Virus record (IMG/VR): IMGVR_UViG_3300032676_000720
From: an uncultured virus (IMG/VR IMGVR_UViG_3300032676_000720)
Taxonomy: Duplodnaviria; Heunggongvirae; Uroviricota; Caudoviricetes
Direction: 5' to 3' (one strand)
Length of the DNA stretch: 64,000 nucleotides
In this document: in pieces, positions 1,088 to 61,639 of the stretch
How positions within the stretch are numbered: position 1 is the stretch's first letter
How the letters are laid out: each line of letters opens with the position of its first letter
Translations under genes and position numbers: made by a program
The notes under the pieces: generated by a model
Databases searched by the model: none
Told to the model about the DNA's origin: nothing
The model's input: only the letters and a program-made list of their open reading frames with translations

Positions 1088-2766
1088 GCTTCACTTTCAA
1101 GTGCGTCAAGTTTAGTTTCATCCAATCCAGAATCATCCATATGGTGTTCTTCTGGTTCCTCTGCTTCAAATAAATTACTAAACATAGTACTAGCATTAAC
1201 TGTTTTCTTACCAGTAGCGCCACGAGTACCGATAATGCTTTGCCAAAACTTATCATACAAATCAATAATAGCAATAGCTGTTTCACGATCCGGAGCAGCA
1301 AATATTGCTTCTACTACATCCTTAAAGTATACAGTATCAAAGCGTTCATCTACAAGCATATTGGGACATTTGCCCGCATCATACTCGCGATTAGCTCGTT
1401 GTACTGATTCTAAGTGTGTCCAAACATTATGTCCCATGAGTAATGCGTAAGAGAATGAATCCCAACTTGTTTTACCTTCTTTGCCTACTTTATTTTTGTC
1501 GCCTGGTTTATATATGCAAATATCTTTAATCTGTAAGTTATTACTAACAGGACTATCGTCGAAGTGATGAATTAGTTTATCTTGTAATACAGCATCGCTA
1601 AATTTGCGTGTATCTGTGGCATACTTTTTATCGTCAACGATAGCACTCATACGATAACACCACTTCTTACGATCTTCGATATCTATTTGATGGTAGACTT
1701 GTCCATTAGCGGTTGCTAAGAATGGACTAGCACAATCAAAACTAATAGTGAAAGCAGGATTAACATACTTACGAACAGCCCGTTGAATATCAGTCAACAA
1801 TAATGCCCATTCTAGTTTACTTGTACCCAAGAAGTGCATCCAATCTTGTTTACCTTCTTGTAGTAATCCATCGAACTTCAGTGCTACTAGTCTACGCAAT
1901 ACTAAGTCAACGTCACACATATTCTGGCCACCCATAGCCCAACCATTAAATGCCTTATTGCCGTAAATGTTTGGATCGCAGAAGTCTTTCATCTGAGCAT
2001 ACCAGTCATCGGCCTGTGCGTGATTTTCACCTTGTAGTACATTTAAGAACTTACAAGCACCTGTGCGGTGTTTGATAAAATATTCGTTATTGTACTTGGT
2101 TGCTTCGACGGCCTGCTGATAAGATTCAATACCGGTAGCGGCACGACCAGCTGGACTACGCTCTACCCACGCTGGAATATCAAGTACCATACCATAGTCC
2201 ATAATACCGTCCATCCAAGCTAATACTTGGCTACGCTTTTTCTGTGCCGCATCTAATTTAGCTTGATATTCTTTTACATGGTCAATCTTAGTATATTTGG
2301 TGTTGCCGTTCTTATCATGTTTAGGTGTACCATCTGGCTTTAACGCAGGAACTTGTTCTATGCCTTTAGCTATAGCCTCAGCCATTTTAGCGGCTACTTC
2401 CGGGCCGTTAGGATCACGCCATTCACCTTCCCACACACCTTTACCAATTTGGAATCCGCCCGAATCGCCTAGAATGAAAGTGTTAGCACGATCCCTGTTA
2501 CGAATCATGTCTTCATTCCAGTCTTGTTTGTTAAGATCCAAGTTGGCGTGTCCTGCTGAATACAAACTCCACTTATATGTAAACAAACCTTTTTGACTAT
2601 TAAGCCAATTAAGCATTTCCATATCTTGGATATTAGTAGGCATACGGGCTTGGTCAACATATTGACTGCCTCGTTGTTTTCCTATGTAAGTACCGTAGAA
2701 CCCCGACAATGCTGGCAAAAAGATAGCATAGTCGGATTGTTTGGCAGTTAAATTATCTTGCGCCAT
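1084..2766 (-). CDS. tRNA-guanine transglycosylase (TGT/DpdA)-like protein
   Basis: TGT motifs in order: DSGGFQ, MVLD, VLQG, WAMGG, HFLG, SFDCASP, GHN. Confidence 0.75.
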   Translation of the reverse strand: MAQDNLTAKQSDYAIFLPALSGFYGTYIGKQRGSQYVDQARMPTNIQDMEMLNWLNSQKGLFTYKWSLYSAGHANLDLNKQDWNEDMIRNRDRANTFILGDSGGFQIGKGVWEGEWRDPNGPEVAAKMAEAIAKGIEQVPALKPDGTPKHDKNGNTKYTKIDHVKEYQAKLDAAQKKRSQVLAWMDGIMDYGMVLDIPAWVERSPAGRAATGIESYQQAVEATKYNNEYFIKHRTGACKFLNVLQGENHAQADDWYAQMKDFCDPNIYGNKAFNGWAMGGQNMCDVDLVLRRLVALKFDGLLQEGKQDWMHFLGTSKLEWALLLTDIQRAVRKYVNPAFTISFDCASPFLATANGQVYHQIDIEDRKKWCYRMSAIVDDKKYATDTRKFSDAVLQDKLIHHFDDSPVSNNLQIKDICIYKPGDKNKVGKEGKTSWDSFSYALLMGHNVWTHLESVQRANREYDAGKCPNMLVDERFDTVYFKDVVEAIFAAPDRETAIAIIDLYDKFWQSIIGTRGATGKKTVNASTMFSNLFEAEEPEEHHMDDSGLDETKLDALESEA

Positions 2767-3347
2767 TATTTAAGACCCATTTGTTTTCTTATTTCAGTCG
2801 CTGAAATAGAGTGCGTATCCTCGTCGAATACTTCGTTTTCAATTTTATAACCAACATTACGACCATAGGTAATGTTTGTAATATTAGGAACGAATACAAT
2901 AATATACTGTCCTTCATACTTTTCCTTTAAATCCGCATGGATGAAGTTTTCTACTTCTTCTTTTTTAAATGGATTAGAATCATTCCAACCTTCGCAATCA
3001 CGGATCATAATACAAACTTGACCTGTTTTAGCAATAGCACGGTCAAACAATGCTCTATGTCCGGCGTGCCATGGCTGCCAACGCCCTAGCATTTGAACAG
3101 TAGGCTTACGCCAATCAAATCCATCTGGATGTGCGGTTGGCTTAGTATGTCTGCCCCATTTAATTTTATTCCAAACTCTTTCATGAAACCAAAATAAACA
3201 TATTTTAGTTAACACTTCGATAGAAGCGATACTACCAGCAACTACTAGTTCTCCTGTAACAAGAAAACTAACAATAAATGTGTCGATAGTACCAGTAAGG
3301 CGCCATGATAGCGCCTTAACTAAACTTCTAATATTAGTGTCAAACAT
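2766..3347 (-). CDS. DUF2061-like membrane domain fused to cytidylyltransferase-like (HxGH) domain
   Basis: RSLVKALSWR...HERVW N-terminus; GRWQPWHAGH motif. Confidence 0.75.
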   Translation of the reverse strand: MFDTNIRSLVKALSWRLTGTIDTFIVSFLVTGELVVAGSIASIEVLTKICLFWFHERVWNKIKWGRHTKPTAHPDGFDWRKPTVQMLGRWQPWHAGHRALFDRAIAKTGQVCIMIRDCEGWNDSNPFKKEEVENFIHADLKEKYEGQYIIVFVPNITNITYGRNVGYKIENEVFDEDTHSISATEIRKQMGLK

Positions 3348-4069
3348 TATTTAGATTGAGCTGGTAGAATATAAGAATAAACAGCAAGTCCGGAATCAAC
3401 AATAATCTGCATTGCGCCTTCATCACTAATACGCATTACTTTATCGCCATACAAGTCAAGAATGCCAATAACAGCTTTGACTGGCCAACTCCATGCTCGC
3501 TTGAGATCACCTTGTACATCTGGTTGGAATACAAAGTTACCAGCGTGTGTTGAATGATCTCCAAAGAAGAACTTCAAATCACCGCCGTCTACTTTAACTT
3601 GGAAATTGTTTTCTTCGCTATTAGCTGTAGCTTGCATTTTCAAACGCTGAATAGCCGCTGCGCTTGGTTCAACCTCTAAGTTCCATTTAACACCTTTGAA
3701 CTTAATAGTCTTAATCTTTTCATTAGCAACTTCGGCTGCCATAAAACGATATGAATTCTTAAAGTCGCCTGCTTTGTTCACAAAGTTTAACTGATCCGGC
3801 GCATTGTCGGCTCTGCGATTAATAGCAAGTGTAGCATCTTCTTTGTACTCTTGTAAGTTCAAAAGAATTTTAAGTTTGGCTAAATTTGGCATACCAAATG
3901 TACCAATAAATTCTGCTACTGGATTGATTGTTTTACCTTCTACAACAATCGAATTATCTTCAGCTTTGCCAAAGATATTTGTTTCAGTGTCAGTTCCAAC
4001 TACACGAACTTGTTCAATACTGCCCAAGTCAAAAGTATGTGAAACTAAGTCTAAAAGATGATCACGCAT
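3347..4069 (-). CDS. DNA polymerase sliding clamp (gp45/PCNA-like)
   Basis: 240 aa, beta-rich, C-terminal YSYILPA, next to polymerase; clamp loader present at 35.3 kb. Confidence 0.6.
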   Translation of the reverse strand: MRDHLLDLVSHTFDLGSIEQVRVVGTDTETNIFGKAEDNSIVVEGKTINPVAEFIGTFGMPNLAKLKILLNLQEYKEDATLAINRRADNAPDQLNFVNKAGDFKNSYRFMAAEVANEKIKTIKFKGVKWNLEVEPSAAAIQRLKMQATANSEENNFQVKVDGGDLKFFFGDHSTHAGNFVFQPDVQGDLKRAWSWPVKAVIGILDLYGDKVMRISDEGAMQIIVDSGLAVYSYILPAQSK

Positions 4070-5036: not shown

Positions 5037-7697
5037 TTAGAACTCAAATAAATTTTGAAATGTATTTTCAGTATTAGTAGCACTAGCTAAGTCCCAATCT
5101 AATACACTTAATAAGTTATCAATCTTTTGGTCTACAATAGTAGCTTCCATTAAGGCATCATCAAATGGAAGTTCTTTAAACCAATCAGGCAAACGTTGCT
5201 CATCTGTAGGGTAACCAATACTAGTCCAACCCAATGGATTTGGCTTTAACTTACATACAATAGTTTTCATGCCGTCGACTACCGCAATAGAATAATTGTC
5301 GCTATTCATACGACGTAGATTGTTCCAGTTTAGTGCCGCACGAACGTGTCCTGGCATATTAGCTTTGCCTGCTTTTTCTTCAGCCGCACCATATTTGGTC
5401 AAGTTGTTTACACGTTTAGGTGTACCCTTTTCCCAAGCTGGACGCTCAGCAAACGCATACTTAAATTCTCTAATGCGCTCAACAATTTCTTCACGACCTG
5501 TACCAGTTAATACCTTTTCCAAAATCTCACTTAAAAACTCTTGAATTATTTTAGGAGTATCCGAACGCTTTAAGTCTAAGCCCATAGCTTTAATCTTGCC
5601 TGGCTTACCGTCTACGTCAAGGCGCTTGCCTTCTAAGTCATAAATTAATACAGCATAACGCTTCTTAGTAATAAACAAACTATTAGATGCTACTAGTTCG
5701 CGACCCGCTTTAATAAGTTCGCCAGCTTCACGAGGACAGTGGAAAGCCTGTTCCATAAATGCCGGAAATGAATCATTAACTTGATCCGCAATGCTATCAT
5801 AGAGTTGAATACAACTTTCTTTACTCCAAGACATCTTTCCAGCCGCCACATCATCTTTGATAGCTGGCCACGCTGTAAAATAGCATGAGTCAGTGTCACC
5901 ATAGATAATTGCTTGTCCTAAATGGTCTTTAACCCCAAAGATACATTCGTTAATATAACTAGCCATGTGTCGAGCAATACTACGACCCGATAGTGTAGTT
6001 GACTGTCCAATACGCTTGTCAAAGAAACGACAATGTGGATTTAAAATAGCACCGTATAACGAATTTAAGTTAATCTTCTTAACTAACTGTCGCTTATCCC
6101 AGAACGCAATCATCTTAGGATCAGTAGCTTCTTTTTTCTTAGCTTGAAGTTCTTTACGTTCAGCATACCAACGCTCTAACAATCCTGGCACAACACCTTT
6201 ACGCTCATATGTAACAATAGTGCCATTAGCGGTTAGCATCCAAGGTTTGTTAGAATTAAATACCATCTCCCAAATCTCAGCCGCACTATGTACAGTACTA
6301 TCGCCATCTTGCCAGTCGATTGTAATTTCAGTACCACGCTGTTGATCCATGACCGCTGTATATTCTAATGTAGCAAACATACCTTCCCACGCTGCCGCAA
6401 ATGATTTGCCTTTACCAACAATTTCATTAATGTAACGATCAGTCATAATAGGACGAAGTTGTCCTACTACAGTTTCCATTCCCATGTTCAACGCACGAAT
6501 AGCAGATGGATAAAGTGAGTTAATATCCACAGCGCCGATCCATTCATGAATACCCTTTTTAGGATACGCAACATAAGCACCTGCGGCCGCTGTATCTTCT
6601 TCGTCTGTTAATCTTTGTTTACGATTAGGTACAACAAGTCCACGCTCATGTGCTTCGTTAATAATAGCTTGTTCAGTAACAGCTACGGCACCCATTGTAG
6701 TTGCTAACAATACAGTATTGGCGTGTGCGAGTTCGTTAGCTAAGTCCAAGAAGCGTAACTTCTTATCTAACTTGTCTAACAACAATGTATCTTGCCTGTT
6801 ATACACAATAAACTGTTTAAAGTCTTGATTGTATAATTGATCCAATGTGCCTTCGTATTGTGTTTTACTTTCGCCTAGTTCATATTCAGAAATAGCATCC
6901 AATGAATAACTGTGTCGTTCTTCATAGGTGTACTTACGATATAATTGCATATAGTCCATGTGTACACGACCTACGATATCATAAGTTGTGCTAGTAGCAC
7001 CATATCGCTCAAATTCACGCTCTTTAGGGAATTGACCCCACAAGCAGAATCTGCGTGTATCATCTTTAGACAATACTCGCTTGATACGATTTACTGTGTA
7101 TGGTATATCATAGCCTTCTGAGTTCCAACCTGAAATAACATCTGCGTCATCGATTAAGTCCAGGAATGTTTTTAACATATCCTCTTCTTTTTCAAACACA
7201 ATACAGTTTTCAAAGTCTTTAGCAATATCATTAGCTGTTTCGATACTCATATGCTTGGGTGGCACAACCAATGTAACTAGTTGCTCCATCCATTGTAAGT
7301 AAACAGAAATAGCTGTAATGCCGTTGAATGGATCAGTGGTAGGAGAGAATCCTTTCTCCTTGTGAAAGTCTACTTCAATGTCGAAGAATGCCGCATGGAG
7401 TTCTGGAGCATCTTTATTTTTGTAATTTTCTTCTAAACAACGGAAGATAGGATTGATATCAGATTCATAAAGTTGTTTGCCTTTTTGAATGGCTACTTCC
7501 TTACGAAACTCTTTACTATTACGACTAGAAAAGCGGGCAACTGGTGTGCCATAGATAGAAGTAAATTTACCTCTAGGATCGTTGTAGTAAAAGATATAAT
7601 CAGCGGGGTATTCTTTATAAATTCTTTCCCCGTTGATTCGTTCTACAACATGAATTCGATCGTGTTCACGATCATATAGACAATCTACATAACTCAA
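5037..7697 (-). CDS. family B DNA polymerase
   Basis: Exo motifs FDIE and GWNSEGYD; pol motifs DINSLYPS, KINLNSLYG, YGDTDS, KKRYA; TTG start with GGAG RBS. Confidence 0.97.
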   Translation of the reverse strand: MSYVDCLYDREHDRIHVVERINGERIYKEYPADYIFYYNDPRGKFTSIYGTPVARFSSRNSKEFRKEVAIQKGKQLYESDINPIFRCLEENYKNKDAPELHAAFFDIEVDFHKEKGFSPTTDPFNGITAISVYLQWMEQLVTLVVPPKHMSIETANDIAKDFENCIVFEKEEDMLKTFLDLIDDADVISGWNSEGYDIPYTVNRIKRVLSKDDTRRFCLWGQFPKEREFERYGATSTTYDIVGRVHMDYMQLYRKYTYEERHSYSLDAISEYELGESKTQYEGTLDQLYNQDFKQFIVYNRQDTLLLDKLDKKLRFLDLANELAHANTVLLATTMGAVAVTEQAIINEAHERGLVVPNRKQRLTDEEDTAAAGAYVAYPKKGIHEWIGAVDINSLYPSAIRALNMGMETVVGQLRPIMTDRYINEIVGKGKSFAAAWEGMFATLEYTAVMDQQRGTEITIDWQDGDSTVHSAAEIWEMVFNSNKPWMLTANGTIVTYERKGVVPGLLERWYAERKELQAKKKEATDPKMIAFWDKRQLVKKINLNSLYGAILNPHCRFFDKRIGQSTTLSGRSIARHMASYINECIFGVKDHLGQAIIYGDTDSCYFTAWPAIKDDVAAGKMSWSKESCIQLYDSIADQVNDSFPAFMEQAFHCPREAGELIKAGRELVASNSLFITKKRYAVLIYDLEGKRLDVDGKPGKIKAMGLDLKRSDTPKIIQEFLSEILEKVLTGTGREEIVERIREFKYAFAERPAWEKGTPKRVNNLTKYGAAEEKAGKANMPGHVRAALNWNNLRRMNSDNYSIAVVDGMKTIVCKLKPNPLGWTSIGYPTDEQRLPDWFKELPFDDALMEATIVDQKIDNLLSVLDWDLASATNTENTFQNLFEF

Positions 7698-8097: not shown

Positions 8098-8187
8098 AGA
8101 CACTTTTGGCTAAACGGTAGCGAATCGCTTTACCAAGGCAGGCTCCGCCTACACCGGCCGTTTTACAACGGTCCTAAGGGTGTTCTT
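8098..8187 (-). ncRNA. candidate structured ncRNA
   Basis: GC-rich non-coding stretch just 3' of TAAATA; closing stem ACAC/GTGT, hairpins CCGTT-GTAA-AACGG, AGGC..GCCT, GGT..AGCG/CGCT..ACC. Confidence 0.45.
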
Positions 8188-8197
8188 TACATATAAG

Positions 8198-8287
8198 TAT
8201 TTACCGAAGTACAGTTTTCAAAATGCCAACGATTCATAGCATTAGAGTAGTTGGATATCCCCATATCGCGAACTACACTTTTATTTA
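8198..8287 (-). mobile_element. internally deleted HNH-endonuclease element (leader + C-terminal MNRWHFENC remnant), TAAATA direct repeats
   Basis: Leader closely matches 14179-14230; joined directly to RWHxxNC codons; TAAATA at 8282-8287 and 8198-8203 (minus). Confidence 0.75.
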
Positions 8288-8368
8288 TCTATAGATAACA
8301 GGTGCGTAAGGATTAAGTTTATAATCCTCATCACCGTGTTGTTCTGGATAAACTGGATATTCGTTCAT
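8285..8368 (-). CDS. small leaderless peptide MNEYPVYPEQHGDEDYKLNPYAPVIYR
   Basis: ATG 5 nt after TAAATA (8374-8379), same arrangement as other late genes. Confidence 0.5.
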   Translation of the reverse strand: MNEYPVYPEQHGDEDYKLNPYAPVIYR

Positions 8369-10136: not shown

Positions 10137-12623
10137 TTATTGACCTTGGATAGACCAGTCGTAGTCTACATTAACGACAACTTTGCCTTGCTTACCATAA
10201 TATGCGTATGGATCAAACTCGTCACTAGTAACTTTGATACGCTTACTACTGCCATCATCAAAATATACTGTCCAAACAAAGTATTCGCCTGGGCGCAAAC
10301 TTTCATTAACTTCGTCTTTAATCAAACGCAATGCTTCTTTGCGTACTTGAATATGACCGCCGTTATCTAAGTCTACTGTATAATATCCAGGAGCGCCTTT
10401 AAATGCGCCTGGACGGATTTCTCCAATAGTGCCCATTTGTCCAGCTTCAGGACCTTTAACAATCTTAACACGATTGCCTAAGTTCTTAGCTTCACTGATA
10501 GCTTCAGCTAACATAACATCTAGGTTTTCGATACTTTCACAATGCCATTTTCTAAGTGATAATGCTTTACGAGTTGGCTCTCCGTTGGGCTTTTTCATAG
10601 GACCCTTCATGCCACTCATACGAGCGCAAAATGATTTGCGGCGCTTATCATCTTTACTGCCTTTTTTAATTTTACTAGGCTTTTTAGTAACAGCGGTTTG
10701 TAGTTTAGATCCAGGATGTTCTTTGCGATAAGAGTCAACACCTTTCTTGTTTAAGCCGCCGTTTTTATTCTTGCCTGATTTCTTTTGCCAAGCGGCTGTT
10801 TCGTCTACAGCTTTCTTTTTAGCAATAGCAATAGCAGCTTGTTGTGCTGGGTTAGCGGCTTCTTCAACAGATTCATTAGGCACACAGTTACGCACTCGGC
10901 CACCATTTTTGCCCTTCTTAGTTCCTTCTTCGTGTTTGCCAGGCCAACATTTGGAAAAACCATTTGAATCTTTTTGACCTTTTTTGATTTCTGTAAATGT
11001 TTTACGAGCTGATTCATAGATAGCAGGTTTAGTAATATTGTATCCATTACGAACAGCCCACGATAAGAAATTATCTGATTCTTCAAGTTGACCAGTTAAT
11101 CCTTTGTAAGCACCTTTAACCATGTCAATTTGTTTTTGTCCAACTTGTTGCATAAATGATTTTTTAGGTTCAGCTTTCTTAGGTGCCTTAGGAGCTGTCA
11201 TTTGCTTAATAGCATATTCTTCAGCATCCTTGCGTAACTTAGCACCTTCTTCATCAGTCATTTCACCTAATCTAGCGGCAGCCGCTTTTTTCAATTGATT
11301 AGCGTGTTTGCCGGCACCACTTTGCATTACTGACTTAGGAGCATGGGTACTTTTTCTAAGAGGTTGCGATAAAGGATTAGAGCGAACGGTCATGTTGCCA
11401 TCAATGCCCTCATCTACTTCTTGATCATCGCCGTTAATTTCGTGTTCGTCACCTTTGTGTAAATCTGGATCAGGTTGACTCTTCATACCTTTAGCTTTAG
11501 CAATTAAATATGCTAATTCTTTATCACCCATTGGATTGTCTAACTCTTCCAAGCCGCCAAAACCTTGCCCTGGCTTAGGAGGATTTGGATCTGTACCTTT
11601 CCAGTATCCGCCAAACTTAGGACCATCTGGATGATGTGCGGCTGCAGCCATTGATCCTTCCTTCATGATAGGATTTAATGTAATCTTATCTGCTTTTTCT
11701 TTTTCGCCTTGGTTGTATAATTTCTTCTTCCAGTTATCGTGAAAGCGGCGAGCATCTTCATAGTAATCAAACTGTTTAACGGACTTGCCGGCTAAACAAA
11801 CTTCATATGGCTCTACTTTGTTAAAGTCTTGCCAACCTTCTACTTTAATTAATTCATCCTGGTCAGGCTCGCCTGGGGCAGAATCTTTCCATTCTTCGAC
11901 TGTAGCAGGAGCTTTAGTAATACCATGTTCTTTGTTAGCTTTTTTACGCCAAGCGATATAACTACCATTATTGTTTACACCACCACCATGCTCATCTAAG
12001 TCTGCTTTGCGAGCTCGCATAGCATTATGGCCTTTGGACCACAATAAATGTTCTGGCGATCCTTTTGGATGCGGATTGCTATCATATGATTTACCTTTAA
12101 TAGCGGCATGCATGCCAGCATCGTGCGGGCTTACTTTTAAACTTTCGTCTACATCGCGATTTTTGTTATTGTAGAATTTTTTAATACTACGAGCACTTGT
12201 GCGTGGCTTTGGAGCAATACGATAATCTCTGCCTGGGGCTTGTTCTTTTTTGCGACGAACTACAGCTTTAGCTTCTTCCTTGCTACCGTAAGTTCCTTCT
12301 TTAGTGCCGTCAATAAAAACTGTATATGTATAATTTGTATCTGCGTAGTCTTCTTCTAAATCAAACGCATCTAAATTACTTTGTGCTGTTCTTTCATTAT
12401 GGGCCAATGTTTCTGCGCCCGGAGCTTCATCTACTTTTAGTTTGTAATAACTGTCGCGCTCTGCTTTAGCTTTAGCGTATGCGTGACGCATAGCTTCTTT
12501 ATATTTAGGATCGTTTGATTCTTTAGCACGAGCTAAAAAGTCATCCATTTTAGCATTTAAGTCTTCAATACGACGTGCTTCAAGGTCGTCGATAGCCCCT
12601 TCAAATATATCAAATAAATTCAT
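10137..12623 (-). CDS. mosaic head-associated (poly)protein with RMF-like, KOW and other small modules
   Basis: MNLFDIFE leader; about 17 (V/L/M/I/F)-x-E motifs separating unrelated short modules. Confidence 0.65.
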   Translation of the reverse strand: MNLFDIFEGAIDDLEARRIEDLNAKMDDFLARAKESNDPKYKEAMRHAYAKAKAERDSYYKLKVDEAPGAETLAHNERTAQSNLDAFDLEEDYADTNYTYTVFIDGTKEGTYGSKEEAKAVVRRKKEQAPGRDYRIAPKPRTSARSIKKFYNNKNRDVDESLKVSPHDAGMHAAIKGKSYDSNPHPKGSPEHLLWSKGHNAMRARKADLDEHGGGVNNNGSYIAWRKKANKEHGITKAPATVEEWKDSAPGEPDQDELIKVEGWQDFNKVEPYEVCLAGKSVKQFDYYEDARRFHDNWKKKLYNQGEKEKADKITLNPIMKEGSMAAAAHHPDGPKFGGYWKGTDPNPPKPGQGFGGLEELDNPMGDKELAYLIAKAKGMKSQPDPDLHKGDEHEINGDDQEVDEGIDGNMTVRSNPLSQPLRKSTHAPKSVMQSGAGKHANQLKKAAAARLGEMTDEEGAKLRKDAEEYAIKQMTAPKAPKKAEPKKSFMQQVGQKQIDMVKGAYKGLTGQLEESDNFLSWAVRNGYNITKPAIYESARKTFTEIKKGQKDSNGFSKCWPGKHEEGTKKGKNGGRVRNCVPNESVEEAANPAQQAAIAIAKKKAVDETAAWQKKSGKNKNGGLNKKGVDSYRKEHPGSKLQTAVTKKPSKIKKGSKDDKRRKSFCARMSGMKGPMKKPNGEPTRKALSLRKWHCESIENLDVMLAEAISEAKNLGNRVKIVKGPEAGQMGTIGEIRPGAFKGAPGYYTVDLDNGGHIQVRKEALRLIKDEVNESLRPGEYFVWTVYFDDGSSKRIKVTSDEFDPYAYYGKQGKVVVNVDYDWSIQGQ

Positions 12624-12624
12624 T

Positions 12625-13701
12625 CTATTTTTCTTCTATGTAATCAGCCGATTGCTCAGCGTCATGTTTGGCTTTACGACGAGCCATATACATTTCTAAT
12701 GCTATTTCACATTCTTCTAAACTGCTAAAACGACTTGGTAATTCTTTGCCAGCACGTTTGATACAAAAGCCATTGCGCTCATCGCCGTGGATCTCAACTA
12801 ATACAGAGCCGCCGCCACCTGAGCCAATGCCAACATCCTCGACTGGAACATTAACTGTTTTAACTGGAGCTGTTGCGCTTTCTGCGTATGTAGGATCAGT
12901 TAACCCAGCAGGCGCTTCGCCTTGTGCCGGAGTTTGATTTGGATCTTCGTCCAACTCATTTTCGTGTTCGCCGTATTCGTCGGCATCTTCATCATCGGCG
13001 TATTGATTGTATTCAACATTAGCAGCATTAAAACTGTGTGTTCCGTGATTGTATAAATTTACAATTATAAAATTACTGCGTTGTCCAAAATCAACAATTT
13101 CGCCAGTAGCGCCGCTAAACTGTACATCGCCAATAATTTCAACTGGGTCACCAATTCGTAATTCTTGACCTTCTTCTAAACTATCAGGGATAGCTTCTTC
13201 TACATCTTGTTCTTTTTTCTTTGCTAACTCAGCACGAGTTTGTTGTGCTAACTTGTTGCCTACGCCTGTGCCTTGTTTGTTGAAGCCCGGAGGATTGCGA
13301 AACGGTTTAGCCGGAGCCGGTGTGTATGGTGCGTCGGGATCTTGATCAGCTTCGTCGACTGATTCTTTAGACTGTAGTTCTAAATCTTTTAATTCTTTTT
13401 TCTTTAAGTCTAAGTCTTGTTTTTTCTTAGTAATTAAATCTTTGTCTTGTTTGAGTGAATCTTCTGCTGATTTTAAATAATCAACTAAACTTGCTTTAAC
13501 TTTTGATAGTACATCGTCTGACTTCTCTTCGGCAAACTCAACACCACCGACACCAGGAGTAAAATCCTCTTCGGCTTTTTTTAAATTATTAAAGAGTGCT
13601 GGTTTCTTCTGTTTAGATTCAGCAATATGCTCATGCTTAGGAGCTATGCGCCCCTCAAGTATGGCTAATTTTTCTACAATACTATAAAAGTTATGGTCCA
13701 T
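12625..13701 (-). CDS. mosaic head-associated protein with KOW/SH3-like module
   Basis: ILEG, IAES, VDEA, VEEA, LEEG, LDED motifs; LRIGDPVEI..GATGEIV module. Confidence 0.6.
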   Translation of the reverse strand: MDHNFYSIVEKLAILEGRIAPKHEHIAESKQKKPALFNNLKKAEEDFTPGVGGVEFAEEKSDDVLSKVKASLVDYLKSAEDSLKQDKDLITKKKQDLDLKKKELKDLELQSKESVDEADQDPDAPYTPAPAKPFRNPPGFNKQGTGVGNKLAQQTRAELAKKKEQDVEEAIPDSLEEGQELRIGDPVEIIGDVQFSGATGEIVDFGQRSNFIIVNLYNHGTHSFNAANVEYNQYADDEDADEYGEHENELDEDPNQTPAQGEAPAGLTDPTYAESATAPVKTVNVPVEDVGIGSGGGGSVLVEIHGDERNGFCIKRAGKELPSRFSSLEECEIALEMYMARRKAKHDAEQSADYIEEK

Positions 13702-14141
13702 TATGCTCTAGCTTCTTTCAAAAAACTTTGTAGCATCCAGATAAACTTGTTTGTGGCAGTTAATCTTTCAGCGATAAAATTTGCGATATCTTGCTTGTTC
13801 TCTGCTGTAGCAGCCGCAAAACATTCATTAAGAAGGTTGATCATAACATGGGAATCAGCTAGTAATTCCTCAAGCATGAGTTGTGCTCTAGGCACTTTAG
13901 TTTGGTCTTGAATACGGGATAACTCGTTATAACGAGTAAGGCTAGCAGGAGTGTATTCTCCCAGGGTGCGGATAAACTCCCCGAGCGGGTCAACGGCAGA
14001 ATATGCGTCCTCATACACTTTTTGTAGGAATTTATGATATTGATAGAAGTCTTTGCCTTCTACATTAAAATGAAAGAAATGGGCTTTTAAGTAATAAGCG
14101 AAGTCACTCGCGAGTAAAATTTTCATCAATTCAGCCAGCAT
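13701..14141 (-). CDS. dps: Dps / ferritin-like DNA starvation protein
   Basis: KAHFFHFNVEGKDFYQYH, D..GE.IR.LG, WML motifs. Confidence 0.9.
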   Translation of the reverse strand: MLAELMKILLASDFAYYLKAHFFHFNVEGKDFYQYHKFLQKVYEDAYSAVDPLGEFIRTLGEYTPASLTRYNELSRIQDQTKVPRAQLMLEELLADSHVMINLLNECFAAATAENKQDIANFIAERLTATNKFIWMLQSFLKEARA

Positions 14142-14177
14142 TTTAAATCCTTTAAATTATATATTATTTAGTTAAAA

Positions 14178-14814
14178 CTAAATAGAAGTGTAGTTCGCGG
14201 ATCTCGACAATCCCAACTACTCTAACGCTTATAAGGAGCAATCAGCATGAGTATTTACAGAAAAGATAGCTACCATCGTAAAATATACGAGGATCACTAT
14301 GGGCCAATTCCAAAAGATTCAGAAGGTCGTAGCTACGAAATACATCATATAGACGGAAATCACGAAAATAACAACATTGATAATCTTCTCTGTGTAAGCA
14401 TACAGGAACATTATAATATACACTATTCTCAAGGAGATTTCAAGGCTTGCCTTATAATGTCTAAAAGAATGGACATTTCTCCGGAAGAAAAATCGAGGCT
14501 AGCAAAAATAACTAACGCAGGCAAAAACAATCCAAGTTATGGGATTTATTGGTGGACTAATGGAGTTGAAGAAAAGAAATCAAAAACTCAACCGGGACCA
14601 GAATGGACTCGCGGAAGATCTGCTATATTAAAAACTCGTGTATCGTCTACTATAGTTAAAAAGGATATTCGAGCAGGGGCAAAAAATACAAGTTATGGAA
14701 AATATTGGTGGACTAACGGAATAGATAGCATTAAATCAGATAAGTGCCCAGAGGGATATTACAGAGGGGTAGGAGAAATACAGAGAATGAAGTCAAGAAA
14801 TAAGTTGGCTAAAT
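14178..14814 (+). mobile_element. HNH endonuclease element bounded by CTAAAT direct repeats
   Basis: CTAAAT at 14178-14183 and 14809-14814; structured leader; ORF antisense to neighbours and reads out past the repeat. Confidence 0.7.
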
Positions 14815-14828
14815 CTTGGATTTTTTAG
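14247..14828 (+). CDS. HNH homing endonuclease
   Basis: EIHHIDGNHENNNIDNL..H..IH; two YWWTNG DNA-binding repeats. Confidence 0.9.
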   Translation: MSIYRKDSYHRKIYEDHYGPIPKDSEGRSYEIHHIDGNHENNNIDNLLCVSIQEHYNIHYSQGDFKACLIMSKRMDISPEEKSRLAKITNAGKNNPSYGIYWWTNGVEEKKSKTQPGPEWTRGRSAILKTRVSSTIVKKDIRAGAKNTSYGKYWWTNGIDSIKSDKCPEGYYRGVGEIQRMKSRNKLAKSWIF

Positions 14829-15323: not shown

Positions 15324-17129
15324 TTATTTAGGTGCGGCAACTAATCGAACATTCTGTGCGATATCGCCTCTGTAGCCGTGTGTTGATTCAGGGTCATCTG
15401 CCCCGGTATTGATAGGTTTGTTAGTTTTCATATTAAATGCGTAAACATTTAATGAACGCCCATAACGTTGTTCTAAATCTTGCCATACTCTTTGGCCGCC
15501 TGGGGATTGATATTTGTCACTAACTAGCGTAAGCCCTTGGTTTTTAACCAACCAAGCATACAAATCTGCGGCACGAATAGGAGCTTTAGGACCTCCATAT
15601 ATACCAAATATTTCAAATGAATGTGGTTTGTTTGTTCCGCTAATGGTCATTTGACTAACGCGAGTTTTAGGATCAAAAACGGAGTAAGCAGAATCGTTAC
15701 CCTTGTCCCACTTATATACTTCTAACTGTCCTAAGTTCCCTACTAAGTTACCAAGTAAACGTTTTTCTTTACCTGGAGGCACTGGTTCGCCTTTGTTTAC
15801 TAAACCTGACTTGTCTTGATTTTTAGTTTTGATATTGTTATGATAAATCACTTCACTTAACTCTCGTTCTTTATTTACGCGAGCCATATGCTGATCATAT
15901 GTTTCTTCATCATCGTCTGACTCTAAGGGAACATAAGCTGGCATAGAAGTCATACCCATATCTCTAGCAGCCACAGCTCTGTGGTTGCCGTCAATAATCC
16001 AGCCTTCATTATCTACTACAATAGGTTTATTTTTAATGTCTTGTGCTGTAATATCTTTAACATAATTGTAGTCAACTAAGTTGATTTGATCGTACGGACT
16101 AACTTCATCTGAATCTATATGTAAACTAGTTAGAGGTACCGTAGTGAGTTCCCATTTAGCATGATTCATTACAGCATGGTCTATAGTAAATTCATCTTTA
16201 GGATGTATTTTTTTAACATAAGACAATATTTCTTTGTTACTTTCTTCGCTGACTGGTTCCCATGACATTGGTTTAGCACCTTTAGCGACGGGTTTAAAAC
16301 CATGACGCTTATATAACTTAGTTAATGAGGCTTGACTTACATTACCCTTAGCCCAAGGATACAATGTTAACTTAATACCCGCTTCTTGTGCTTGACGCTG
16401 TAGCTCTTTAATAGCACGACTACCAACACCTTTGCGTTGTTCGGGCCCGGCCATGATCCAATCTATTTCTACTGTATCAGGTTTCATACTAGGTTTGAGT
16501 TTGAACGCGGCAAATTGCTGATCTTCGCCTTCTCCCCATACCATAACTTTATCTGCTTGACCATACGGCCAATCAGGATACTGACTATATACCCTGTCAA
16601 TAAATTCTTGTGCTTTATTTGATTCTACAGCTTCATTTAAATTTTTTTTTAAAAAAGTATCGGCTAACTTTTTACACAGTAATTTAATCTTGCTATTTTC
16701 TGTAATAATGATTGTAAACTTTTCTTGGGTATTATCTTGTGATGGATCACTATACCCGCAATAAGCTAATTTGATATGTTTTTCATTTAATAAATCTGTA
16801 CAGCTAACGCCATAGCGATTATCGCCAGTATCTTCACAGCATGGGCTCAGTGTAGTAATTACAATACTGCCCTTTGGCAATTCTCCGTACTCTTCTTCAT
16901 ACTTGTCTATGGCTGCTCGTTCCGCATGGATTCTTGAATTTCCATATAGATAATTTACACCAGTGACTAATCTACCCCGAGTATCTAATACCGCGGCGGC
17001 TACCATACCATAAAAGTCTGGATTATCTTGTTGTCCTTCGATGACCATATCGCAAAGCTCAACAAGAACTGCGTCTAGTTTTTCACGACTAAACTTTAGT
17101 TTAGGTTGGATAAAATCGTTTAAAATCAT
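15324..17129 (-). CDS. multidomain protein: CDA/RibD-like deaminase + GNAT + ParB/Srx-like + GNAT-like domain
   Basis: HAE..TLSPC..C; PEQRKGVGS..LYKRHGF; IIDGNHR; SDKYQSPGGQRVW; linkers LNEA, SEES, LSEV. Confidence 0.75.
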   Translation of the reverse strand: MILNDFIQPKLKFSREKLDAVLVELCDMVIEGQQDNPDFYGMVAAAVLDTRGRLVTGVNYLYGNSRIHAERAAIDKYEEEYGELPKGSIVITTLSPCCEDTGDNRYGVSCTDLLNEKHIKLAYCGYSDPSQDNTQEKFTIIITENSKIKLLCKKLADTFLKKNLNEAVESNKAQEFIDRVYSQYPDWPYGQADKVMVWGEGEDQQFAAFKLKPSMKPDTVEIDWIMAGPEQRKGVGSRAIKELQRQAQEAGIKLTLYPWAKGNVSQASLTKLYKRHGFKPVAKGAKPMSWEPVSEESNKEILSYVKKIHPKDEFTIDHAVMNHAKWELTTVPLTSLHIDSDEVSPYDQINLVDYNYVKDITAQDIKNKPIVVDNEGWIIDGNHRAVAARDMGMTSMPAYVPLESDDDEETYDQHMARVNKERELSEVIYHNNIKTKNQDKSGLVNKGEPVPPGKEKRLLGNLVGNLGQLEVYKWDKGNDSAYSVFDPKTRVSQMTISGTNKPHSFEIFGIYGGPKAPIRAADLYAWLVKNQGLTLVSDKYQSPGGQRVWQDLEQRYGRSLNVYAFNMKTNKPINTGADDPESTHGYRGDIAQNVRLVAAPK

Positions 17130-26209: not shown

Positions 26210-27004
26210 TTACTTCTTTTGTGCTTCTTTGATAAGATTGGTTAGTTCGTCACTTAGGCTAGATGGCATTTTGGCATGAATTCTAACTAATAAATCGCCA
26301 ACAGGTCCTTGGCGTGAAGCTAGTCCTCTACCTTTCAGACGCAATAGTCCGCCTGGCTGTGTTAACGGTGGAATGGTTAAAGTTAATTGGTTACCCAAAA
26401 TATCTTTTACTTCTGTTTCTCCGCCAACTAAACAATCCCAAATAGATACTTGCTGGTCCATTGTTAAGTTTAATCCTTGGCGATGCCATTTTGGATGTTG
26501 ATGTATTCTAAAATTAACAATTAAATCTGTGTTACCAGGACCTATGCCAGGATATTGAATATTATCGCCATCGTTAAGTCCCAATGGGATTTCTATTTCA
26601 ATTGTCATTGAGCCTTGCTGTGTACCTACAGTAACAGGCCGCTTGCCGCCTTGTGCTACATCTTGTAATGTTACCCATAAGCTCATTCTGGTATGGGTTT
26701 GTCGTTGCTGTCCTGGATGTTGATGCCCTGGATGAAACTGTGCGCCAAACATACTAAAGATATTGTTAAAATCGAACCCGCCACCATTAAATTCAAAATG
26801 TATATTTTGATTAGGATTATCGTATTGGGCTCGTTTACTAGGATCGCTTAATGTTTCATAAGCCGACTGAACCGATTGAAATTTAGCTTTATCGCCACCT
26901 TCGCGGTCTGGATGATACTTTGCCGCCATACGGCGATATGCTTTTTTAATATCGTCAGCAGACGCATTACGGTCTACTCCTAAGGTTTGATAGTGATCTG
27001 TCAT
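26210..27004 (-). CDS. DnaJ-class chaperone (CbpA-like, no Zn finger)
   Basis: [19 protein letters not shown] domain, G/F region, C-terminal domain. Confidence 0.92.
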
Positions 27005-27600
27005 ATTGTAATAAATGTGCAATTTTTTCGTATTAGATAGGGAGATAAATTTGTAGCCGCCATTGCTTCTCTAATAGAAGCATATTCAATACCATTAAGT
27101 AATAACGGTTTTGAGGCGGCGTTCTCTTTACCTGTCCTGTTGCCTTTTTGTTTTTGACTGCTCTTACGTTTTCTATCATTGGAACAAGGTATTCCATATA
27201 ATGGATGATTACTACCTTTCATTCGTTCGCTTTGTGCTGGATTCTTCTTACCGCCCCAGACACTTAGCTCACCGACGTATACACCTTTTAATGCTTTACT
27301 TCGTTTGGCTCGAACTTCTGGAGATATATTACTTCCGCCTTCGCCGCCATCTGTTTGATTTGCTAATATGCCAGTACCGATGTCTTTGCGCCCAAACTTT
27401 TTAATAAGTTTTTTTTCGAGGTCAAACGCTTCCTCCTCAAATAAAGATTTGGCAATTATTATAATTCGATTTTTATCTGATGGTGGTTTATAAGTGCGTT
27501 TTTTTGACCATGCTCGATCACCGGACCCCTTACCTATGTAGTAAGGGGATTGCCCGTCTTTACGAAGATAAGCATAAACATAGAATTTTGGGTCAGTCAT
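27001..27600 (-). CDS. GIY-YIG homing endonuclease
   Basis: [31 protein letters not shown]; own TTTACA-17-TATAAT promoter at 27608-27636. Confidence 0.88.
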
Positions 27601-31030: not shown

Positions 31031-31438
31031 TTAAGGTAAAATGTTGCTGGCTATTATACTAGCCCAACGCTCAGCATCTTGTTCTGTTACACGATAATCG
31101 TATGTTTTAGGGCTTTTAAATAAGGCATTAGTATCAGCAAATCTGCCCTCTTTAATAGTATCTACCCATATTGTAATCTCCGGGGCAAATATTTCACGCA
31201 TTTCTAGTAATGGGCATACGAAATCAGCAATAGCATATTCTGATTCACTTGCGTCACATAGTTCACGCATACGACGACTTTGACGAATTCTTCCTTCTTC
31301 GCTAAAGTCCCAATCGTTAAATTGTGCTCTAATTTCGTCAGCATTAAAATGCTGTGCGTTAATTTTTTCTACTAAGGATTTTGCTAAGGTAGTTTTTCCT
31401 GAGCCAGGAAGGCCCAGGATTAAAATACGATGTGCCAT
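31031..31438 (-). CDS. adenylylsulfate-kinase-like P-loop kinase
   Basis: GLPGSGKTT, NADEIR..DFSEEGR, DFVCP. Confidence 0.8.
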   Translation of the reverse strand: MAHRILILGLPGSGKTTLAKSLVEKINAQHFNADEIRAQFNDWDFSEEGRIRQSRRMRELCDASESEYAIADFVCPLLEMREIFAPEITIWVDTIKEGRFADTNALFKSPKTYDYRVTEQDAERWASIIASNILP

Positions 31439-53231: not shown

Positions 53232-53909
53232 TTAAGTTGTTTTTTTCTTACAGCGATCCATGTGCCATCTTTTCATGATACTAAGACCGCCAGTTTTATT
53301 ACAATGAGGACAAGTTATTACTTCTTTAATTCCTGCCCTTATTCCTACTAACTCGCCCGATGCTAACCGAGGATCGTCTACTGATACCTGCATAACATTG
53401 CCATTTTTATCTTTTACTGTAGTAGTTCCGGCTGTAGCATTAACTAACTCGCCAGTTTTAATTCTAATATCATCTACTGCTACTCTAAATTTATTGCCAG
53501 CTTTATCAACTACGGTTACCTTACCTTTAGTATGTGCTACTAACTCTCCGGATATAAACCGAGGATCGTCAACGGCTACTCTAAATTTATTACCGGCTTT
53601 ATCTATCACTGGAGTAGTGCCTTTATTGCGTCCTTTAGGACCAAACCCTCCGCCAGACTCAGGAATCCTATTAGCCCATTCTGCGCTCTCAACTATATTC
53701 CATTTCTCACTAAGTCGTCGCCCTTCATTATCAATTACCGATTTATCATCAGATTGACATATTATTTCAGTAATATGATTCTTTCCGTGCTCTGCTAAAT
53801 GTAGTTTCCAGTCAACCCCGGATCCTCGATATTTAAACGGATCCCGTTCTGTCTGTCCCAGATACTTTAATCCAGTAACCGAGTGAGTCTTAAGATAAAG
53901 ATAGTGCAT
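53232..53909 (-). CDS. GIY-YIG (Seg-like) homing endonuclease
   Basis: YLYLKTH..TGLKYLG..Y.GSG..W; three internal repeats; C-terminal CPHC..RWH..C. Confidence 0.85.
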   Translation of the reverse strand: MHYLYLKTHSVTGLKYLGQTERDPFKYRGSGVDWKLHLAEHGKNHITEIICQSDDKSVIDNEGRRLSEKWNIVESAEWANRIPESGGGFGPKGRNKGTTPVIDKAGNKFRVAVDDPRFISGELVAHTKGKVTVVDKAGNKFRVAVDDIRIKTGELVNATAGTTTVKDKNGNVMQVSVDDPRLASGELVGIRAGIKEVITCPHCNKTGGLSIMKRWHMDRCKKKTT

Positions 53910-60709: not shown

Positions 60710-60898
60710 TTAGTTTTTCAGACTATCTATTATAAAATCACCAGCATCTCCAAACTCATAGCCTTGATGCGGATACACAGCAATATTCCGTTCTCTACGA
60801 TATATTGTAGTGAGCCAATGCCACTGTCCGTTGATCCGACGTGGTTTCCACGGACCTTGCGGTCCTTTAATAAATTTAATAAGTGTTAGACGAGATGA
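60710..60898 (-). pseudogene. 3' part of a gene interrupted by the HNH element (5' part at 61600-61620)
   Basis: no start codon of its own outside the element; joins in frame to GTG CCC ATT GGG ATT GAT TTA across the TAAAT repeat. Confidence 0.55.
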
Positions 60899-61604
60899 TA
60901 AATAAGAATGCCGATCACGATACTGGACATATCTACCGGCTCTAACAGTTAATAAGGAACTATCAGCATGATATTTATACCCAACAAATACACTAAATGG
61001 TATTTTGCCATTATCAATAATGCCAGGACTCGTACTAATACTGGTTATAACGAACAACATCATATTACTCCTGAGTGCTTTTTCAAAAACAGAACTCGCA
61101 AAGGTCCAGCTGGACAGCTAGTCGGTAATCCTGAAGATCCATCCAACAAAGTAAAACTTACAGCAAAAGAACACTTCATTTGTCATCACCTTCTAACTAA
61201 AATGCTTGCCGATACTCGCCCACGGGCACAAATGCTAAAAGCCCTAGAACGAATGACCGCAAGTAATAATAAACATCAACGCTACAAAATAACAGCCCGA
61301 CTATTTCAACAAATTCGTATCGAAGCCGCTACAGCACATTCAACTCTAATCAAAGGCAAACCGAGCCATTCAAAAGGTAAAAAATGCCCTAACATCTCAA
61401 TGGCTAAAACAGGTAAATCTATTAAACAACCACCTAGAACCGAACAGCATCGTATCAATCTTGGCAATAGCCTCAAAGGTAAACCTGCTTGGAACAAAGG
61501 TAAAACTTACACTAACAAACCATACAAACGATTAACCTGTCCTCATTGCGGATTAGAAGGTAGCATCGCTAATATTAAACGCTGGCATAACAATAACTGT
61601 AAAT
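60899..61604 (+). mobile_element. HNH endonuclease element bounded by TAAAT direct repeats
   Basis: TAAAT at 60899-60903 and 61600-61604; structured leader homologous to 14179. Confidence 0.7.
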
Positions 61605-61639
61605 CAATCCCAATGGGCACGGAAGTACTTTCCAAATAG
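60968..61639 (+). CDS. HNH/NUMOD3-type homing endonuclease
   Basis: EQHHITP..N.V.LTAKEHFICH.LL; PAWNKG; CPHC..RWHNNNC. Confidence 0.88.
   Translation: MIFIPNKYTKWYFAIINNARTRTNTGYNEQHHITPECFFKNRTRKGPAGQLVGNPEDPSNKVKLTAKEHFICHHLLTKMLADTRPRAQMLKALERMTASNNKHQRYKITARLFQQIRIEAATAHSTLIKGKPSHSKGKKCPNISMAKTGKSIKQPPRTEQHRINLGNSLKGKPAWNKGKTYTNKPYKRLTCPHCGLEGSIANIKRWHNNNCKSIPMGTEVLSK

Follow-up and report, generated by a model that had tools for sequence, protein, structure and literature searches.

A portable cassette at the start of phage homing endonuclease genes: helices kept on the antisense strand and a predicted cis-antisense RNA

What is the structured element that stands directly ahead of homing endonuclease genes (HEGs) in an uncultured tailed phage, and which DNA strand carries its function? 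The question arises at position 14,178 of a 64,000-nucleotide (nt) stretch of the IMG/VR virus record IMGVR_UViG_3300032676_000720 (hereafter the window, to which coordinates refer unless stated otherwise), where a short A+T-rich box and three small helices, P1, P2 and P3, precede an HNH-type nuclease gene. A preliminary description of this DNA had noted three copies of the arrangement and had read it as a structured leader, possibly a repressor or switch in the 5′ untranslated region (UTR) of the nuclease mRNA. We find that the helices are maintained on the other strand, the one antisense to the HEG. We favour, at a probability of roughly 55%, a reading in which the element is a portable cassette of ~100 bases that makes a ~68-nt cis-antisense RNA over the HEG 5′UTR, in the manner of RNA-OUT of IS10.

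Helices maintained on the strand antisense to the nuclease gene

The pattern TAAATA-N4-T-N{28,40}-CTCTAAY matches the window only at 14179-14226(+), 60899-60946(+) and 8287-8241(−), which confirms the three copies with their stems; shuffled sequences gave a mean of 0.08 matches, and none of 100 shuffles reached three. The same three are the only matches in the whole 158.5-kb record (G000, of which the window is positions 32842-96841). P1 is GTAGTT/AACTAC at 14190 and at 8276(−) and GCCGAT/ACCGGC at 60910, where one A·C mismatch appears when it is read on the sense strand; P2 is GGAT/ATCC or GATA/TATC, and P3 is GCTT..GAGC or AGTT..AACT. The 8.2-kb copy does lack P3, as had been reported, and its Shine-Dalgarno (SD) sequence and open reading frame (ORF) are gone as well. 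A covariance model of the element, R1, finds five copies in this genome, namely three intact copies, one remnant and one relic; outside the window it adds an intact copy at G000 15569-15671 and the relic, a decayed cassette at G000 11605-11702(+) that scores 35 bits.

More than 170 distinct copies occur in IMG/VR viral contigs, with up to 13 per genome. In an IMG/VR scan anchored only on CTCTAAY..ATCAGCATG, 80 of the 123 matches listed carry the whole element, and the remaining 43 are chance loci without resemblance upstream. A second scan, anchored on the box and P1, gave at least 125 loci, and all 100 of those searched match R1. Five large IMG/VR records, two of them complete T4-size genomes of 161-195 kb and three of them genomes of 219-361 kb, contain 38 R1 copies (13, 13, 1, 8 and 3 per record), and each of the 38 is followed by an ORF at the expected ATG, two of these ORFs being short (30 and 61 codons).

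The genes that follow are of several kinds and share one occupation. Among 82 downstream proteins, phrog_314 was matched 33 times, phrog_12324 21 times and phrog_655 19 times (counts of families, since one protein may match several), and all are annotated as homing or intron-like endonucleases. Pfam matches among 49 downstream proteins comprise HNH_3, HNH, GIY-YIG, NUMOD3, the I-TevI DNA-binding domain and a TnsA-like domain. Their common start is limited to M-x-I-Y. The two intact nucleases in the window are of different types, as the preliminary description had it (HNH_3 and phrog_655; best BLASTP E 1.6), and its proposal that a covarying structured element accompanies unrelated nuclease families holds across the larger sample: the ORFs behind the element belong almost all to homing-endonuclease families, and covariation scores are 0.50-0.52, against 0.18-0.19 in shuffles.

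Covariation in the helices is very strong. RNAalifold reports compensatory changes in 9 of 10 pairs, and the score of the antisense alignment A3 (84 rows) is 0.496 versus 0.18 in shuffles, with none of 500 shuffles as high. A3 includes one stray single-base row (L236:1-1), which contributes nothing but gap cells to these counts and one nearly empty row to a further covariance model, R2. Of 19 pairs in the 42 copies that the model located in six viral records, 15 have changed on both sides. P3 is longer than first described: in 104 sequences CTCT pairs with CAGC and AAC with ATC, the C3-G pair of this extended helix being C-G in 99 and U-A in 5. The linkers TCTAA and ATCAGC, described as fixed, are indeed constant in the three copies of the window; in the wider family they are partly helix, CTCT/CAGC changing to CTTT/CAAC and AAC..ATC to ATG..CAC among relatives. 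Below, we refer to P1 and P2 together as hairpin B and to the extended P3 as hairpin A.

The mismatches reveal the strand. An A·C opposition on one strand is a G·U pair on the other, so that an excess of A·C on the sense strand means that selection keeps the fold of the opposite strand. In A1, a structure-blind MAFFT alignment of 75 sequences on the sense strand, from which locus L041 was dropped as not being a true copy, the P1 cells comprise 433 Watson-Crick pairs, 17 A·C and no G·U, an extra pair beside them comprises 60, 15 and none, and P2 comprises 286, 7 and 3, for a total of 39 A·C versus 3 G·U. In the extended P3, position A5 faces C as an A·C mismatch in 103 of 104 sequences. Standard pairs account for 95.3% of cells on the antisense strand (A3, 84 rows) and 84.1% on the sense strand (A1, 75 rows). 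When identical cells are complemented, the antisense values are 95.3% for A3 (179 G·U, 6 A·C) and 97.5% for the 42 model-found copies (76 G·U, 8 A·C), against sense values of 84.3% and 88.9%, respectively. On the antisense strand, hairpin B is paired in 98-99% of cells and hairpin A in 96.4% (the latter in the 42 model-found copies). The antisense minimum free energy (MFE) is lower than that of the sense strand in 66 of 74 and 90 of 104 sequences, and the asymmetry persists in 11 loci where the HEG and the gene upstream of it run in the same direction. The part of the preliminary description that made the element a structured leader of the sense mRNA, a 5′UTR repressor or switch, is thus not upheld: the helices fit the opposite strand, and the sense strand shows A·C rather than G·U.

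Convergent boxes and a predicted antisense RNA

The two covarying helices are bracketed by two convergent NTAAATA-N4-T-G boxes ~85 bp apart. In 179 distinct copies, the spacer of the sense box is 5 nt in 148, and TG occupies positions −1/+1 in 174, a spacing that predicts a T4-style start exactly where the first helix begins. The inner box reads TATTTA(T/C) on the sense strand and is an inverted copy of the first; N4-T-G again follows it, the G being complementary to the C immediately before the AUG. On its own strand it is spelled ATAAATA in 123 copies, GTAAATA in 29 and ATAAGTA in 12. Its presence in 179 of 179 parsed copies follows from the construction of the parse, which left 17 of 227 instances unparsed. 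NATAAATA is the published late promoter of T4-like cyanophages (PMC2984593), and a gp55-like late sigma factor (phrog_234) is encoded in all five of the large element-bearing records.

The inner box lies within codons 2-4 of the nuclease gene, and its distance to the ATG varies so that every reading frame is represented (143, 24 and 12 copies; 53, 18 and 11 among 82 copies from the second scan). Codon 3, in 141 copies, is ATT in 127, ACT in 11, ATA in 3 and ATC in none, compared with 344 ATT, 147 ATC and 385 ATA isoleucine codons in the ORF bodies. The 12 commonest types of codon 2, which cover 139 of the 141 copies, all end in T, yet they encode at least 11 different residues. The use of three frames together with this codon-usage bias indicates that the inner box is conserved as nucleotides and not as amino acids. 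First-order Markov simulations predict 90 ± 7.5 ATAAATA sites on both strands of the whole record, which has only 18; called ORFs cover 89% of the genome, yet 11 of these sites fall outside them. This fivefold depletion fits a promoter word that is selected against elsewhere.

Further signals lie just behind the element. A leftward TTGACA (TGTCAA) is found within 35 nt in 18 of 172 copies, with 1.7 expected, and a leftward TAAATA within 60 nt in 32 of 172, with 17 expected; copies with one or the other include L263, L265, L269, L270, L283, L285 and L293. These sites are putative promoters of the divergent neighbour.

Read along the antisense strand, the cassette consists of box, five bases, G, hairpin A, one base, hairpin B and a U-rich tract. 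Hairpin A is a stem of 8-9 bp closed by a 7-nt loop complementary to the SD sequence, and the tail behind hairpin B has a mean of 7.0 U in 12 nt and a minimum of 5 (179 copies). Such an anatomy is that of a small cis-antisense RNA gene, whose transcripts, ends and effect we infer. A stable antisense stem-loop with an exposed loop complementary to the translation initiation region, as predicted here by folding, is also what characterizes RNAs of the RNA-OUT type.

In copy 1, the sense box CTAAATA, of the late-promoter type, lies at 14178..14184(+) and is followed by N4-T-G, which puts the predicted sense +1 at G 14190. Hairpin B spans 14190..14220(−), with 6 bp, one extra pair and 4 bp, as indicated by folding and covariation; on the antisense strand it is followed by ACUUCUAUUUA, a U-rich tail of which the complement of the sense box is a part. 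Hairpin A, at 14222..14245(−), is a stem with the 7-nt loop CCUUAUA, the complement of the SD region. The antisense box GTAAATA (TATTTAC on the plus strand) at 14252..14258(−) falls in codons 2-4 of the nuclease gene. From the spacing of this box, an antisense RNA of ~68 nt is predicted at 14179..14246(−), beginning opposite C 14246 and ending in the U-rich tract; it folds into two hairpins with an MFE of −15.7 kcal/mol. The gene itself, 14247..14828(+), encodes an HNH_3 homing endonuclease (PF13392, E 3e-14; phrog_12324, E 2e-30) and opposes its neighbours.

Copy 2 repeats this layout with different stems. Its sense box ATAAATA at 60898..60904(+) gives a predicted sense +1 at G 60910, and hairpin B lies at 60910..60940(−), where the sense A·C of GCCGAT/ACCGGC is an antisense G·U pair. 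Hairpin A at 60942..60966(−) has 9 bp and the loop CCUUAUU on the antisense strand and is missing from the sense MFE structure. The predicted antisense RNA, ~69 nt at 60899..60967(−) with ends deduced in the same way, folds at −19.2 kcal/mol (z −3.4), compared with −5.7 kcal/mol (z +0.7) for the sense leader. The antisense box ATAAATA (TATTTAT on the plus strand) at 60972..60978(−) reads ATG-ATA-TTT-AT, a frame unlike that of copy 1. The downstream gene at 60968..61639(+) is a homing endonuclease gene by phrog_655 ('homing endonuclease', E 5e-40), its sole Pfam match being a sub-threshold AHH, and it too opposes its neighbours. A 117-codon ORF at 60710-61063(−) overlaps copy 2 and the 5′ end of the nuclease gene, has no Pfam match, dropped out of the non-overlapping set compared with PHROGs and is most likely spurious.

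The 8.2-kb copy is a remnant at 8187..8303(−), which retains the sense box (8288-8282) and hairpin B (8276-8247) whole but has lost hairpin A, the SD sequence and the nuclease gene, of which a 16-codon stub is left. It scores 50.3 bits with R1, has a 33-nt insertion where P3 should be, and is co-oriented with its neighbours. The same remnant locus is present in a second IMG/VR contig, L140, and is identical at all 117 bases compared. Together with the relic at G000 11605-11702, this recurrence indicates that cassettes outlive their nuclease genes.

These features suggest the following mechanism. Both boxes would be gp55-type late promoters, the left one giving an HEG mRNA that begins with the opening base of the first helix and the right one giving an antisense RNA whose first base lies next to the AUG, on its upstream side. 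The antisense RNA would fold hairpin A, with its SD-complement loop, then hairpin B, and would end in the U-rich tract, where it is complementary to the left box; at ~68 nt, it would be complementary to the entire 5′UTR. It would pair with the HEG mRNA, probably loop to loop at first and at the SD sequence, and the pairing would block ribosome binding or draw RNase III, so that a potentially toxic nuclease would be kept low. Action in trans could occur, given that the copies have the SD loop and large parts of the stems in common, and it might scale with copy number as for IS10 RNA-OUT. The combination of sense A·C with antisense G·U would leave the SD hairpin of the mRNA weak and the antisense RNA stably folded.

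The main rival is an antisense-strand terminator or insulator without a promoter of its own, a PeSL-like composite that would limit polar damage at the site of HEG insertion: hairpin B and the U tract, helped by hairpin A, would stop the transcripts of opposite-strand neighbours, and the next host gene would restart from its own promoter. It accounts for a fold on the antisense strand that runs into a U-rich tract, and the orientation of the genes suits it, since the upstream neighbour is on the opposite strand at 29 of 52 loci (same strand 12, unclear 11) and the three intact copies of this genome oppose their neighbours. Neighbour promoters behind the element, of the TTGACA and TAAATA kinds counted above, would supply the restart; at copy 1, an extra CTAAATA box at 14165..14171(−), 24 nt upstream of the start (14141) of a ferritin/Dps-like gene at 13701-14141(−) (PF00210, E 6.5e-17), gives the left neighbour a box of its own just behind the element. 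PeSLs are themselves described as composite terminator/promoter motifs (PMC4122927). This explanation nonetheless gives no purpose to an inner NTAAATA box that keeps its distance in three reading frames and runs counter to codon usage, and it does not explain a hairpin A with an anti-SD loop and a conserved G·U pair. Loci where the HEG follows an upstream gene of the same orientation keep the antisense fold equally well, and a simple terminator scan did not flag the site. We consider it unlikely, while taking it seriously.

It is also improbable, in our judgement, that the element acts as a structured 5′UTR of the HEG mRNA, with the P1/P2 hairpin at +1 shielding the late mRNA from RNase E and P3 holding half of the SD sequence and tuning translation. 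By the box spacing, the sense +1 does coincide with the start of P1; the P3 stem includes the 3′ half of the SD sequence and reaches 3 bp or more in 71 of 75 sequences, compared with ~45 of 75 in chimeras; and the innermost P3 pair is a sense U·G in 19 of 104. In addition, control by a hairpin at the ribosome-binding site (RBS) is a known way of T4 HEGs (PMC2988022). Against it stands the excess of A·C over G·U on the sense strand (39 versus 3 for P1, the extra pair and P2; 179 versus 6 for all helices), including the A5·C mismatch. The sense P3 is weak, most of its folds ranging from −1.5 to −6 kcal/mol and leaving the 5′ half of the SD sequence in the loop, or is missing from the MFE structure, as in copy 2. 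The late box precedes both hairpins, so that the trick used in T4, in which late transcripts lack one arm, cannot work. Pairing between the two boxes (AUAAAUA with UAUUUAU) in a read-through RNA was considered as a T4-like switch and rejected as the main mechanism: its probability exceeds 0.5 in only 24 of 112 sequences, with a marginal mean of 0.24, and accessibility from the SD sequence to the AUG is 0.50 when the upstream arm is present, compared with 0.53 when it is absent. Inspection by eye showed no covariation between the sequences flanking one box and those flanking the other. Least probable, and in our judgement very unlikely, is an element that works as DNA, either as single-stranded DNA or a cruciform or as a homology block that lets nuclease genes swap by recombination. 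One cassette does stand before several unrelated nuclease families and runs through their first four codons, gene-free remnants persist (copy 3 and L140), and copies are more alike within genomes G002 (0.77) and G005 (0.81) than between genomes (0.57); G·T is also the least harmful mismatch in DNA. However, no excess of within-genome identity is seen in G004 (0.52) or G000 (0.54), homology alone selects neither compensatory changes nor one strand, and the SD-complement loop, the U tract and the promoter-like spacing indicate RNA.

Several observations weigh against an antisense RNA made by the cassette. Both starts, the 3′ end and even the existence of this RNA rest on inference. A simple promoter and terminator scan did not flag the element, and hairpin B was unflagged in both intact copies of the window; this hairpin has bulges and an A/U-rich stem base, and its U tract is interrupted by A. 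No gp55 match was found in the 158.5-kb part of the genome, which says little given that the record is 45% complete. If both boxes are late promoters, they fire together, and the logic of the timing is then unclear. The difference in MFE between the strands is partly a matter of base composition (shuffle control −1.9 kcal/mol), and alignments A3 and A4 took the antisense strand as their basis or were fitted to it, though the structure-blind A1 shows the same asymmetry. Finally, the innermost P3 pair, with its sense U·G in 19 of 104 sequences, suggests that the sense hairpin may matter too.

Known systems and the range of the cassette

The closest functional parallel is RNA-OUT of IS10/Tn10, a 69-nt cis-antisense RNA whose promoter faces that of the element's own DNA enzyme (PMC5006887). 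In that account, as in the prediction here (~68 nt), a small stem-loop antisense RNA is complementary to the translation initiation region, and its 'multi-copy inhibition' grows with copy number, which would suit a cassette present in up to 13 copies per genome. The differences are also clear. Here, the target would be the homing endonuclease of a lytic phage and not a transposase, and both predicted promoters are of the T4 late type; the cassette has two hairpins, and its pairing loop is the complement of the SD sequence. The predicted RNA stops short of the AUG and covers the whole 5′UTR, there is no relation in sequence or in Rfam, and RNA-OUT is an established control whereas the cassette is known from its sequence.

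T4-type control of I-TevI, segB and Aeh1 mobE relies on an RBS-sequestering hairpin with an embedded late promoter (PMC2988022). What the cassette has in common with it is a late-type TATAAATA/NATAAATA box beside an RNA structure at the RBS of a free-standing HEG, with a nuclease kept low or late. In the T4-type system, though, the late promoter lies inside the hairpin and late transcripts lack one arm, whereas the cassette has its box ahead of both hairpins, carries its fold on the opposite strand and adds a second, inverted box. In 148 of 179 copies, 5 nt separate the box from the first helix downstream, so that a late transcript would hold both hairpins, and we found no stable sense hairpin that buries the SD sequence. 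The hairpins of HEGs in 'fractured genes' from the Global Ocean Sampling data are of the same T4 type (PMC2677866, Supplementary Fig. S4). There, the hairpin outlives the HEG at locus gp41-7 (PMC2677866), as in copy 3 here. We considered these hairpins as instances of the same motif and rejected them, as the sequences of that figure are mobE-type and different (PMC2677866).

Within the library of papers searched for homing endonucleases with an antisense RNA, the one match was CfrI of the T4-like cyanophage S-PM2, a ~225-nt RNA (Millard et al. 2010, cited in PMC2984593 and PMC12197685). As those sources summarize it, CfrI resembles the predicted RNA in lying opposite a homing endonuclease gene in a T4-like phage and in being co-expressed with it. 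By the same descriptions, on which the comparison is based, it differs in being a single locus, about three times longer, that links the HEG to psbA, and not a multi-copy 5′ cassette. The PeSL cassettes of T4-like phages are composites of a terminator and an early sigma-70 promoter on one strand (PMC4122927; see also PMC2839356). They are described there as small modules of promoter and stem-loop, many per T4-like genome, that stand on accessory genes and are thought to mediate modular shuffling; to that extent they are similar. However, PeSLs as described head ORFs of any kind, whereas the cassette is nuclease-specific, with a pair of convergent late-type boxes around its two hairpins. The joining of an early sigma-70 promoter to a stem-loop on one strand is not a feature of the cassette, a leftward TTGACA being present in only 18 of 172 copies.

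The view that the element belongs to no named family agrees with our searches. Rfam 15 gave no match at the gathering score on either strand of the window, and at E ≤ 10 the region 14120-14300 gave only two chance-level matches, tsr33 (17 bits, gathering score 109) and a Tetrahymena snoRNA (16 bits, gathering score 100). Megablast of the locus found no match among GenBank phages, and blastn of a typical element against 50,697 GenBank phage records gave none at E ≤ 1e-3, the best being a chance 31-nt match to a Sulfolobales virus (E 2). R1 had no matches in the cultured phages Phosso, Atu_ph07, UE-S1, XbC2 and T4. Across 185,579 genomes of prokaryote species, a specific pattern of the element matches only four contigs (L301-L304), which are binned with Bacteroidota metagenome-assembled genomes (MAGs) (Mucilaginibacter, a 'Bacteroides' MAG, a Bacteroidetes bacterium and Haliscomenobacter). 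The bins give a weak hint of host range; phage contigs may have been binned there by chance, and the phage studied here uses clear SD sequences. The cassette is abundant in uncultured T4-like and jumbo phages of freshwater and other environments and absent from the cultured phages searched. One complete 195-kb T4-size genome (G004; L276-L282 and L300) has copies with much larger hairpin A loops and CTCTAG..CCAGC instead of CTCTAA..TCAGC. These copies score lower with R1 (37-60 bits) and look like a sub-family of the cassette.

Genome context and implications for nuclease control

The 158.5-kb record to which the window belongs (CheckV completeness 45%) has 38% G+C and carries nearly all of its genes on the minus strand, and all three intact copies of the cassette run against the neighbouring genes. 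Its family-B DNA polymerase is closest to those of Sinorhizobium phage Phosso (50%) and Agrobacterium phage Atu_ph07 (47%), which makes this a T4-related jumbo phage. At least six further homing-endonuclease-like genes in this genome have no R1 match, at 27001-27597(−) and 53232-53906(−) in the window and at G000 3294-3737, 6628-7008, 12609-13208 and 13830-14447; they include members of phrog_314, a family that carries the cassette elsewhere. The two in the window have, in place of the element, sigma-70-like promoters of the TTGACT-N17-TATAAT-like or extended −10 kind.

Two side observations concern the rest of the window. G+C-rich, hairpin-forming islands lie in the A+T-rich spacers beside copies 3 and 2, at 8100-8185(−) and 60820-60870(+), for example a GGACC..GGTCC stem at 60855-60868 that is followed by a T-rich run; the islands have no Rfam or tRNA match. 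Two genes 28 kb apart match the two halves of the phrog_10255 'kinase' profile, 2766-3344(−) its positions 113-229 and 31031-31435(−) its positions 2-102, and may be a split gene or two diverged paralogues. A tRNA scan found no tRNA.

A bolder extension of the antisense-RNA reading, which we put forward tentatively and hold at somewhat less than even odds, is that the cassette is a dedicated RNA antidote. Its two convergent late promoters would each double as the downstream signal of the other RNA, and the whole would have been captured by several unrelated nuclease families. The ~68-nt antisense RNA would silence the nuclease in cis and, across all copies, in trans, thereby acting as a sensor of copy number, and in mixed infections it might confer immunity against the homing endonucleases of related phages.

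To our knowledge, the harmlessness of free-standing HEGs to their own phage has been explained for only a few genes of T4 and Aeh1. Control in those genes combines an RBS hairpin that contains a late promoter with autorepression. If the present reading is true, the cassette would be a second solution to the restraint of HEGs, based on antisense RNA and portable between nuclease families. It would also be a compact natural design, in which a promoter, a terminator tail and a coding start overlap on two strands. Independently of the mechanism, the covariance model marks the starts of HEGs in metagenomic phage contigs, and the cassette offers a worked example of how wobble asymmetry can tell the functional strand of a palindromic element.

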